DNA of 64,000 nucleotides from an uncultured Rickettsiales bacterium (GTDB lineage: Bacteria > Pseudomonadota > Alphaproteobacteria > Rickettsiales > SXRF01), in contig CAZYBO010000006.1 in NCBI GenBank assembly GCA_964645205.1, positions 892 to 64,891 on the forward strand, given 5' to 3'. Positions within the stretch are counted from its first letter, which is position 1. Each line of letters opens with the position of its first letter. A program made the translations under genes and the position numbers. Below are positions 24,325-26,378 of the stretch, piece after piece. The notes beneath the pieces were generated by a model, which was given only the letters and a program-made list of their open reading frames with translations, was not told the origin of the DNA and ran no database searches.

Positions 24325-26378
24325 TTTTTGCTTTCAATGAGGGCGAGCCATTCGTCTTCCGACAGTATGGCGACACCGAGTTTCTTCGCGTCGTCGAGTT
24401 TCGAGCCGGCCTTTTCGCCCGCCACCACATAATCCGTTTTCGCCGACACGCTGCTGGCCACTTTCGCGCCGAGTGCTTCCGCGCGCGCCTTAGCCGCCTG
24501 CCGCGTGATGCGCGTGAGCGTGCCGGTGAACACCACGGTTTTGCCGGACACCGGTGAATCCGCCGCTACCGCCTCGGCGTCGCGGATGCGCAACTCCCTG
24601 CCCAGCGCATGCACGATCTCCACATTATGCGGCTCGCGGAAAAAATCCGCCAGCGCGGAAATCACCGCCTCGCCGATACCGTCGATCGTCTCCAACTGCG
24701 AAGCCGCTTCTCCGCTTTCCATGCCCGCGATCCACGCAGCATAGCTGCCGTAATATTGCGCCAGCGTCTTCGCCGTCACCTCACCCACATGGCGGATGCC
24801 GAGCGCGAAAATGAATTTATGCAACGCCACGTCGCGCGCTTTTTCAATCGCCGCGCACAGATTATCCGCCGATTTTTTTCCCCAGCCTTCGCGCACCGCA
24901 AGCACGTCCGCCTTCTGCGGCAACGCAAAAATATCAGCCGCGGTTTTAATCAGTCCGTCCTGCCAGAACGCGGTGATCTGCTTCTCACCCAGCCCCTCAA
25001 TATCCATCGCCCCGCGCGACACGAAATGCCGCAGCCGCTCCACCAGCTGCGCCTCGCACAACAGCCCGCCCGTGCAGCGCCGCGCCACCTCGCCCTCCTC
25101 GCGCACGGCCATACTTCCGCACACCGGGCAATGATCGGGAAACACATACGCCAGCGACTGCGCCGGGCGTTTGCCCACATCGACTTCCACCACCTGCGGA
25201 ATCACATCCCCCGCGCGCTGCACCACCACCGTATCGCCCTCGCGAATATCCTTGCGCGCGATCTCATCCTCGTTATGCAACGTGGCGTTCGATACCACCA
25301 CCCCGCCCACCGTCACCGGCTTCAACCGCGCCACCGGCGTAAGCGACCCTGTGCGGCCTACTTGTATTTCGATTTTCTCCACGACAGTAATTGCACGCTC
25401 CGCCGGGAATTTATGCGCGATCGCCCAGCGCGGGGCGCGGCCTACGGAGCCGAGTTTTTCGCGCAACGCGAGGTCGTCGATTTTGTAGATAACACCATCA
25501 ATATCGTGAGGTATTTGACTACGTTCTGATTCTAATCTTTTGTAATATTCTAGTGCCTTACCTAGTGACGCCATTATTAGCTGTTTTTCAGGAAAATGTG
25601 GAACAATCCGAAATCCCCAAGACTCTAATCTCAACAAAAATTTTGAATGGGTATCCCCTGTTCTAATATCATCACTTAATTCTCCCCAACTGTAGACAAA
25701 GTAAGTTAGGTTTCTTGATCGGGTTATTTCGGAATCTAATTGTCTGAGTGAACCCGCTGCTGCATTTCGAGGATTTGCAAACTCCGATTCACCCACTGCC
25801 CTGCGGTTTGCGTTCAATTCATCAAATATTTGATGAAGCATAAACACCTCCCCGCGCACCTCAAGTACAGACGGCCAGCCCGAACCCTTCAATGCTGATG
25901 GAAACCCTATTACCTGTTTTAAGTTGTCCGTGATTAGTTCACCAACTTCACCATCACCGCGTGTAGCGCCTTGCACCAACAACCCATGTTCATAGCGTGC
26001 AGAAAACGAAAGGCCGTCAATTTTTTGTTCACAAGTGTAGTAAAGTTCTTCACCATCCTTAAGCCCAAGGAATCGCCGAATACGCGCATCCCACTCCCTC
26101 ACCTCCTCCTCATCAAACGCATTATTCAACGACAGCATCGGCACCGTATGCTTTACCTTCGCAAACTTCTCCAGCGGTGCGGCGCCTACTTTTTGCGTGG
26201 GGCTGTCGGGGGTTTGGAGTTCGGGGAATTTGGCTTCGAGGGATTCGAGTTTTTTGCGCAGCACATCATATTCCGCATCCGAAATGACCGGGGCGTCCTG
26301 CTGGTAGTAGAGCTTGTCGTGGTGGCGGATTTCGTTGGCGATTTTTTGCCATTCCTGCCGGGCTTCGCTTAGGCTCAC
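24321..26378 (-). CDS. ligA: NAD-dependent DNA ligase
   Basis: Adenylation motif [10 protein letters not shown] fold, Zn finger CPVCGS...RCTGGLLC, HhH region and C-terminal BRCT ([10 protein letters not shown]). Confidence 0.95.

Follow-up and report, generated by a model that had tools for sequence, protein, structure and literature searches.

An AT-rich block of ligA in an uncultured Rickettsiales bacterium is probably one allele of a recombining catalytic-domain cassette

Mosaic housekeeping genes formed by interspecies homologous recombination are exemplified by penA of Neisseria and by pbp2x, pbp2b, and pbp1a of Streptococcus. Those mosaics are recent and antibiotic-driven, have identifiable donor species, and carry blocks that are typically 5–25% divergent. 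Hypervariable allele cassettes form a second kind of variable locus, found at agrBDC of Staphylococcus, the comQXP pherotype locus of Bacillus, the central domain of fliC, and the pyoverdine region of Pseudomonas. These loci encode signalling, surface, or uptake specificity, and the benefit of being different is understood. The NAD+-dependent DNA ligase LigA is regarded as a housekeeping enzyme that is conserved and inherited vertically, and it serves as a marker gene and an antibiotic target. Here, we analysed a stretch of 64,000 nucleotides (hereafter, the window) from an uncultured Rickettsiales bacterium (contig CAZYBO010000006.1, positions 892 to 64,891), in which ligA contains a sharply AT-rich block within its nucleotidyltransferase (NTase, or adenylation) domain.

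The explanation that we favour, with a probability of about 0.7, is that codons 97–296 of this gene (the query) are one allele of a recombining cassette of old, divergent NTase alleles. The locus resembles the penicillin-binding-protein mosaics in having divergent blocks in an essential gene, near-identical flanks, a preserved frame and catalytic motifs, and a discordant block phylogeny. Unlike those mosaics, the ligA cassette is clade-wide and lies in a DNA ligase, its alleles are ~50% divergent in protein, its donor is not identifiable, and block similarity never rose above flank similarity by more than 0.037 in 7140 homologue pairs. With the agr, comQXP, fliC, and pyoverdine loci it shares deep alleles that are numerous within species, sharp boundaries where the sequence is conserved, allele lineages that cross species backgrounds, and a GC content that is often atypically low. 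By this analogy, the cassette would stand closer to the agr, comQXP, and fliC central-domain loci than to the mosaic penicillin-binding-protein genes. It differs from them in that the variable unit makes up the greater part of a catalytic domain, in an essential replication enzyme that acts inside the cell and has no known diversifying partner. Segmentally variable genes, in which variable segments lie among well-conserved ones, have been described as a class, and adaptation to a changing interaction was proposed for them (Zheng, Roberts and Kasif 2004, PMC387263). Variability between genomes is the sole defining feature of that class, and the ligA case adds to it recombinational replacement and a compositional signature. 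The word "ligase" does not occur in the main text of that paper, and all four matches to "liga" fall in one passage on ligand-binding domains.

Judged by its sequence, the window gene is a bona fide LigA. The domain architecture is complete (Ia–NTase–OB–Zn finger–HhH–BRCT), with every domain above its Pfam gathering score: Nlig-Ia at residues 14–55, adenylation at 71–327, OB at 331–407, Zn finger at 416–443, HhH at 459–589, and BRCT at 609–681. Residues 7–681 align with E. coli LigA (PDB 2OWO; E = 7e-193), with which the protein shares the full domain set and all NTase motifs. The GTG start codon overlaps the recN stop (26375–26378), the ligA stop overlaps the prmA start (24321–24324), and bamD, recN, ligA, and prmA form a gapless gene row.

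The GC content of 120-nt segments falls from ~0.58–0.70 to 0.36–0.50 between ~25460 and 26120. The lowest 600-nt bin of the window is 25501–26100 (GC 0.437; window mean 0.586), and outside ligA no 600-nt segment of the window is equally AT-rich. The block edges were located by a maximum-likelihood two-breakpoint segmentation of third codon positions, with 100 permutations as the null. The segmentation placed the block at codons 97–296 (25491–26090), with a third-position GC content (GC3) of 0.33 inside and 0.74 in the rest of ligA, and its log-likelihood ratio of 50.1 compares with a permutation maximum of 11.2. The original prediction, made by inspection of the letters, had counted 19/60 G+C in 25501–25560 and 40/60 in 25201–25260; both counts were reproduced exactly, and the trough that it expected from sliding GC and GC3 profiles was recovered. 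The interval that it gave, 25480–26160 (residues 73–300), is AT-rich, but it overshoots by ~70 nt on the high-coordinate side, where residues 73–96 still show a GC3 of 0.63–0.67. The edge at residues 295–300 is sharp, and that at residues 90–110 is more gradual. The AT signal lies mainly at third codon positions; GC at first positions (GC1) drops as well (0.30–0.47 around residues 211–250), and the amino acid composition tilts to AT-coded residues. The reading frame and motifs I, III, IIIa, IV, and V, including the EQKIDGLS stretch, are unbroken, as had been predicted. The AlphaFold model of the query LigA has a mean predicted local distance difference test score of 80.6, with values of 83–95 across most of the cassette. 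A perfect 20-nt palindrome, TTCATCAAATATTTGATGAA, lies at 25818–25837 within the cassette, and may have arisen by chance in AT-rich sequence.

The nearest LigA homologues are 70–73% identical and come from metagenome-assembled genomes of uncultured "Rickettsiales"/Alphaproteobacteria; within this clade, the LigA flanks are 65–80% identical. Orthologues of recN, ligA, and prmA were present in 18 of 18 clade loci examined, and bamD in 16 of the 18. The GC3 profiles of the query and of L001–L004, L006–L008, L011, and L016–L018 drop at residues ~91–106 and recover at ~286–301, and this aligned trough was seen in host loci of 0.51 as well as 0.62 GC. We defined the dip as flank minus block GC3, with a trough threshold of at least 0.15, and compared 25 distinct clade loci. 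A trough at the aligned position was found in 15 of these 25, and in 9 of the 11 GC-rich hosts (flank GC3 of at least 0.66). Among alphaproteobacterial loci of greater distance, 59 were compared and none showed a dip (range −0.13 to +0.09). The members of the clade without a trough include L005, L012, L014, and L015, and the low-GC members still dip by 0.13–0.19. Because the trough is common to most relatives, the patch is not private to the query genome, and the one-off recent event implied by the original prediction did not hold up.

The trough is specific to ligA and is independent of the host composition. No other gene of the window showed a sustained GC3 trough. Variable windows of recN (conservation 0.38–0.43) have a GC3 of 0.57–0.73, and those of prmA (conservation 0.35–0.47) a GC3 of 0.73–0.90; taken with bamD, windows with a conservation of 0.32–0.47 retain a GC3 of 0.57–0.90. 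Well-conserved windows of the cassette (conservation 0.73) nonetheless have a GC3 of 0.23–0.40. A genome-wide coupling between variability and AT-richness was rejected on these grounds, with variable recN, prmA, and bamD being GC-rich and conserved block windows AT-rich. Furthermore, block GC3 and flank GC3 are scarcely correlated in the clade (rho 0.21, p 0.32, n = 25). In other alphaproteobacteria, used as the outgroup, block GC3 follows the genome (rho 0.90) and the NTase core matches the remainder of LigA in conservation, neither of which applies in the clade of the query. The GC content at the first and second positions of the block tracks block GC3 (r = 0.95) more closely than host GC3 (0.80). 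With block GC3 uncoupled from the host and the first two positions following it, the cassette pool has a composition of its own.

Deeply divergent alleles segregate within species in two species-level pairs of the clade. L085 and L087 are 98–100% identical over 22 kb except at ligA nt 284–873. This segment could not be aligned by blastn; it differs in length by 66 nt, with a nucleotide identity of 0.29–0.60 and a block protein identity of ~0.44. The two LigA proteins are identical through ...PMLSLNNA, diverge right after it, and become identical again at DIDGxVYK. Likewise, L088 and L090 are 96–99% identical outside ligA nt ~300–900, where the identity is 0.38–0.70, and identity resumes from DIDGxVYK. 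One allele of this pair has a GC3 of 0.27–0.40 and the other 0.33–0.63, in a background of 0.6–0.7. Around the block, ligA shows shoulders of 90–97% identity beside a 99–100% identical recN, which suggests tracts exchanged between close relatives with different alleles. These pairs of relatives, in which a segment of the gene has been replaced, support the original prediction of a chimeric essential gene. L085 and L087 differ in a second unalignable block (L085 18275–19573; L087 18342–19622), which encodes a 518/512-aa protein without a Pfam match and adjoins a ShlB/POTRA two-partner-secretion transporter; this may be a variable secreted protein.

An assembly chimera, in which the flanks of one genome are joined to the block of a co-occurring low-GC relative at shared k-mers, might be suspected because the source is an assembly of an uncultured organism and the block edges match conserved sequence that encodes motifs, in which k-mers could be common to related genomes. 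However, the query ligA was recovered with 0 mismatches over 2058 nt in two Logan assemblies from separate runs (SRR13608728 and SRR13608701), and the identical protein occurs on three further contigs (five in total). Every allele of L085, L087, L088, and L090 was assembled at least twice, and the alleles of the relatives were recovered by different assemblers from different samples, on contigs of up to 1.4 Mb. The frame and all motifs are intact. We therefore regard a chimera, against which the original prediction had advised a check, as very unlikely.

The pairs also bear on a second explanation, vertical inheritance with a region-specific force that keeps the segment AT-rich while the protein diverges rapidly in situ. 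Candidate forces would be rare codons and slow translation, an embedded DNA or RNA element, or a local mutational bias. The position of the trough is conserved across a clade with saturated synonymous sites, and the dips in low-GC members point the same way. However, genomes with 98–100% identical flanks differ by 40–70% of the block nucleotides and by indels; divergence of this kind within a species makes in situ divergence impossible as the sole explanation. Pairs that are congruent show equal identity in block and flanks, the block and flank trees are incongruent, and several clade members have no trough. Internal promoter and terminator signals were considered as an embedded element and were not enriched, with 2 promoter-like sites in the block against 1.1 ± 1.2 expected, and the open reading frame (ORF) list contains no antisense ORF in the block. 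A local force could contribute to the AT-richness of the alleles; as the whole explanation, we consider it quite unlikely.

The cassette consists of a core module and a hypervariable (HV) module, separated by motif IIIa (Table 1), and the histories of the block and its flanks were compared across the clade. Between the query and its relatives, the block is ~0.53 and the flanks are ~0.76 identical in protein; the ratio is the same among the relatives, indicating that the query is not special. In the outgroup alphaproteobacteria at matched divergence, the core is 0.74 and the flanks are 0.75 identical. The corresponding values for the clade are 0.57 and 0.72, falling to 0.34 at residues 226–298. 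Pairs that share an allele show block/flank identities of 0.96/0.95, 0.85/0.85, and 0.82/0.79. Intrinsically fast evolution of the block was rejected on the basis of this equality in congruent pairs and of the outgroup core, which is conserved like the flanks. Across the 7140 homologue pairs, the block is often far below the flanks, down to 0.44 against 0.98.

Core distances have a correlation of only 0.00–0.05 with those of the C-terminal flanks, although the split-half reliability of the core is 0.48; the flank segments correlate among themselves at 0.28–0.31. We then scored discordance in the 88 homologue pairs whose flanks reach at least 85% identity, counting the core as discordant when its identity was lower than that of the flanks by more than 0.15. 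Discordance was seen for the core in 50 of these pairs and for the HV module in 75, compared with 0–1 of the 88 for control flank segments.

The separate phylogenies of block and flanks called for in the original prediction proved incongruent for the query itself. For the block, 97.5% of neighbour-joining bootstraps and 100% of quartets place the query as sister to P0003, a relative on a 40%-GC contig. For the flanks, P0003 ranks 24th of 24 relatives by closeness to the query, and for residues 466–680 only 3–14% of quartets unite the two, Dayhoff recoding included. The HV module is 0.64 identical between query and P0003, and 0.33 ± 0.05 for all others. The P0003 block differs from the blocks of its own flank relatives. 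These placements indicate that one allele lineage resides in differing genomic backgrounds, the query and P0003 belonging to different flank subclades. The pattern that had been named as telling against a chimeric gene, in which all relatives carry the AT-rich segment and the phylogeny is congruent, holds in its first half, in that the segment is AT-rich in most relatives; the phylogeny is incongruent. In the low-GC flank subclade of P0003, a ParE toxin gene and a small antitoxin-like gene are inserted between recN and ligA on the opposite strand (L083, 370–993; L091, 3264–3887; L092, 2352–2975), L091 and L092 being groundwater "Hain_H41" assemblies.

The grouping with P0003 could also reflect a single, fairly recent import private to the query lineage, in which a low-GC tract of ~600 nt came from a P0003-related donor and has yet to ameliorate. 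In line with such an event, the block sister sits in a 40%-GC contig, its flank subclade has a GC content of 0.40–0.44, and the block GC3 of the query (0.33) resembles that of P0003 ligA (0.26 in the block, 0.39 in the flanks). The shift of the block amino acid composition to AT-type residues fits as well. The degree of identity argues otherwise. Query and P0003 are 0.68 identical in the block, no higher than the 0.70 of the flanks, and their synonymous sites are saturated, so that the shared allele lineage looks as old as the background split rather than recently transferred; a transfer of such age should have ameliorated. In addition, most relatives show the trough, each with a different HV sequence, which would require many independent low-GC imports into the same segment. 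A search of 5.8 billion proteins yielded no closer donor, and no donor with a block more similar than its flanks was found in the 7140 homologue pairs. A protein search with the block alone returned short partial proteins (the best with 53% identity over 99% and 62% over 77%), which are uninformative on full-length donors. The low-GC donor invoked in the original prediction is possible for the deep origin of the allele and is not established; a single recent import into the query lineage is improbable.

The conserved motifs delimit the cassette and its modules (Table 1). Among 120 homologues, motifs I, III, IIIa, and IV are invariant and motif V is invariant or nearly so. All alleles look like working ligases, as enzyme function is predicted to be kept because every allele retains the catalytic residues. 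The position of motif V in the GC-rich, vertically inherited part means that the catalytic domain is divided between cassette and backbone. The PMLSLNNAF stretch may act as the left recombination anchor. Motif IIIa, in which at least 95% conservation was found across the same 120 homologues, is likely an inner crossover anchor, to judge from its position between the modules. Only 8% of the columns in the HV module reach at least 95% conservation, and its mean pairwise identity is ~0.35 (distance 0.649). In the structure model, this module comprises a strand (225–234) and two helices (244–253 and 272–284) between motifs IIIa and IV. The two modules can be replaced independently: the core alone was replaced in 10 pairs and the HV module alone in 2, and the distance correlation between the modules is 0.04. 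Separate replacement is consistent with the presence of two GC3 levels in the query, 0.43 in the core and 0.24 in the HV module, on either side of the invariant motif IIIa.

Table 1. Features of ligA, its cassette, and the adjoining genes (positions in the window).
Feature	Position	Strand	Remarks
ligA, NAD+-dependent DNA ligase, 685 aa	24321..26378	minus	ORF list, Pfam, 2OWO alignment
AT-rich cassette, codons 97–296, within NTase (adenylation) domain; putative swapped unit	25491..26090	minus	GC3 segmentation, aligned trough of relatives, same-species replacement
Cassette module 1 (core), codons 97–200, GC3 ~0.43	25779..26090	minus	
Motif I KIDG, residues 119–122	26013–26024	minus	In core module; EQKIDGLS = residues 117–124
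TRGDGE	25947–25964	minus	In core module
Motif III LEVRGEV, residues 172–178	25845–25865	minus	In core module
Motif IIIa, residues 201–215	25734..25778	minus	Near-invariant stretch between both modules
Cassette module 2 (hypervariable, HV), codons 217–291, GC3 ~0.24	25506..25730	minus	
Conserved PMLSLNNAF stretch, residues 80–88	26115..26141	minus	Just outside cassette
Motif IV DIDGVIYK, residues 292–299	25482..25505	minus	Right cassette edge, putative right recombination anchor
Motif V RWAIAHKFP, residues 317–325	25404..25430	minus	In GC-rich, vertically inherited part
recN, upstream neighbour	26375..28087	minus	Control gene without GC3 trough
prmA, downstream neighbour	23422..24324	minus	Control gene without GC3 trough

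Some co-segregation with the cassette is seen for the N-terminal domain Ia (residues 1–96; 26091–26378). Distances in this domain correlate with those of the core at 0.19, compared with 0.00–0.05 for the C-terminal flanks, and 78% of quartets for residues 1–90 unite the query and P0003. This could reflect physical linkage or co-adaptation between the NAD+-binding lid and the NTase domain.

A sharply bounded hypervariable block in a conserved gene might also arise by targeted hypermutation, either through a diversity-generating retroelement or through gene conversion from silent cassettes. However, the 64-kb window contains no second copy of the block and no NTase-like fragment at the DNA or protein level, and no reverse transcriptase was found among the genes within 10 kb of ligA in L085 and L087. 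The differences span 600 nt and involve indels and all base types. Such a mechanism is hardly credible here. A phage origin or phage vector was considered separately and found no support, with the best phage LigA being 49.5% identical to the block and 0 viral contigs matched.

Outside the ligA region, the second most AT-rich stretch of the window is 62836–63999 on the plus strand (GC ~0.45, GC3 0.55). It encodes the start of a sensor protein that runs past the window end, with a weak dCache_1 match (32.8 bits against a gathering cut-off of 45). Two long ORFs, at 3–3206 on the plus strand and 12411–14369 on the minus strand (1068 and 653 aa from stop to stop), gave no Pfam match at E of at most 0.001; they may be spurious frames from crude ORF picking or uncharacterised proteins.

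The cassette explanation brings together four results: the gene is a mosaic, the segment has been replaced between same-species genomes among the relatives, its composition is decoupled from the host, and the catalytic motifs are conserved. The clade would hold many old and very divergent alleles between PMLSLNNAF and motif IV (DIDGxxYK), ~45–55% identical overall and ~35% identical in the HV module. These alleles would be shuttled between near-identical genomes by homologous recombination, in which the crossovers would fall in the conserved DNA that encodes the edge motifs and sometimes also at motif IIIa within the block. The query would carry an allele of the lineage found in the 40%-GC genome of P0003. 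The cassette pool would keep its own low-GC composition independently of the host genome, and for this reason the block would be conspicuous in the 59%-GC query genome. The alleles are probably long-lived rather than freshly imported, and diversifying or frequency-dependent selection on the domain surface may retain them. Two routes could keep the alleles AT-rich. Divergent allele classes may recombine less with one another and so be shielded from both efficient selection and GC-biased conversion; alternatively, the cassette pool may be supplied by clade members of low GC content.

Several points weigh against this explanation. The closest flank relative of the query is only 80% identical, so there is no same-species comparator, and replacement in the query lineage itself is deduced from tree incongruence and from analogy with the relatives. 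Resolution is poor in the star-like flank trees, in which the best-placed sister of the query has only 55% bootstrap support. The low GC content of P0003 could inflate flank distances, and the incongruence survived Dayhoff recoding. The alleles do not fall into discrete classes; when clustered by single linkage at 0.62 identity, they gave one large chained cluster of 72 and many singletons. All sequences are metagenome assemblies and were judged at the assembly level. The cause of the AT-richness is proposed rather than demonstrated, and no selective agent is known. Finally, a full-text literature search returned no report of a mosaic or hypervariable LigA, the matches to "liga" (in PMC387263 and a Pelagibacter preprint) being to "ligand" or to other ligases.

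A tentative extension, which we consider possible but doubtful, is that the NTase domain is a front line of biological conflict. Its surface would be bound by an antagonist, for instance a phage protein that inhibits or hijacks the ligase, a toxin from other bacteria, or an inhibitory natural product. Frequency-dependent selection by this antagonist would preserve ancient alleles by the dozen in different species, reshuffled as a cassette. With recombination between the allele classes suppressed, these would drift to an AT-rich mutational equilibrium.

In this clade, most of the LigA catalytic domain varies in the manner of a surface antigen or a pherotype locus, and such variation would not be expected of an enzyme at the core of replication: versions only ~45% identical occur within one species, and alleles appear to cross species boundaries. 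In such clades, ligA can mislead phylogenies, estimates of average nucleotide or amino acid identity, and pangenome clustering. If the alleles are neutral, the locus would provide a clean natural system for conserved motifs as recombination anchors, and a test system for the hypothesis that reduced recombination lowers GC content through GC-biased gene conversion. If they are maintained by selection, something in nature would target the ligase adenylation domain, which would constitute a new host–parasite or chemical conflict and may bear on resistance to ligase inhibitors.

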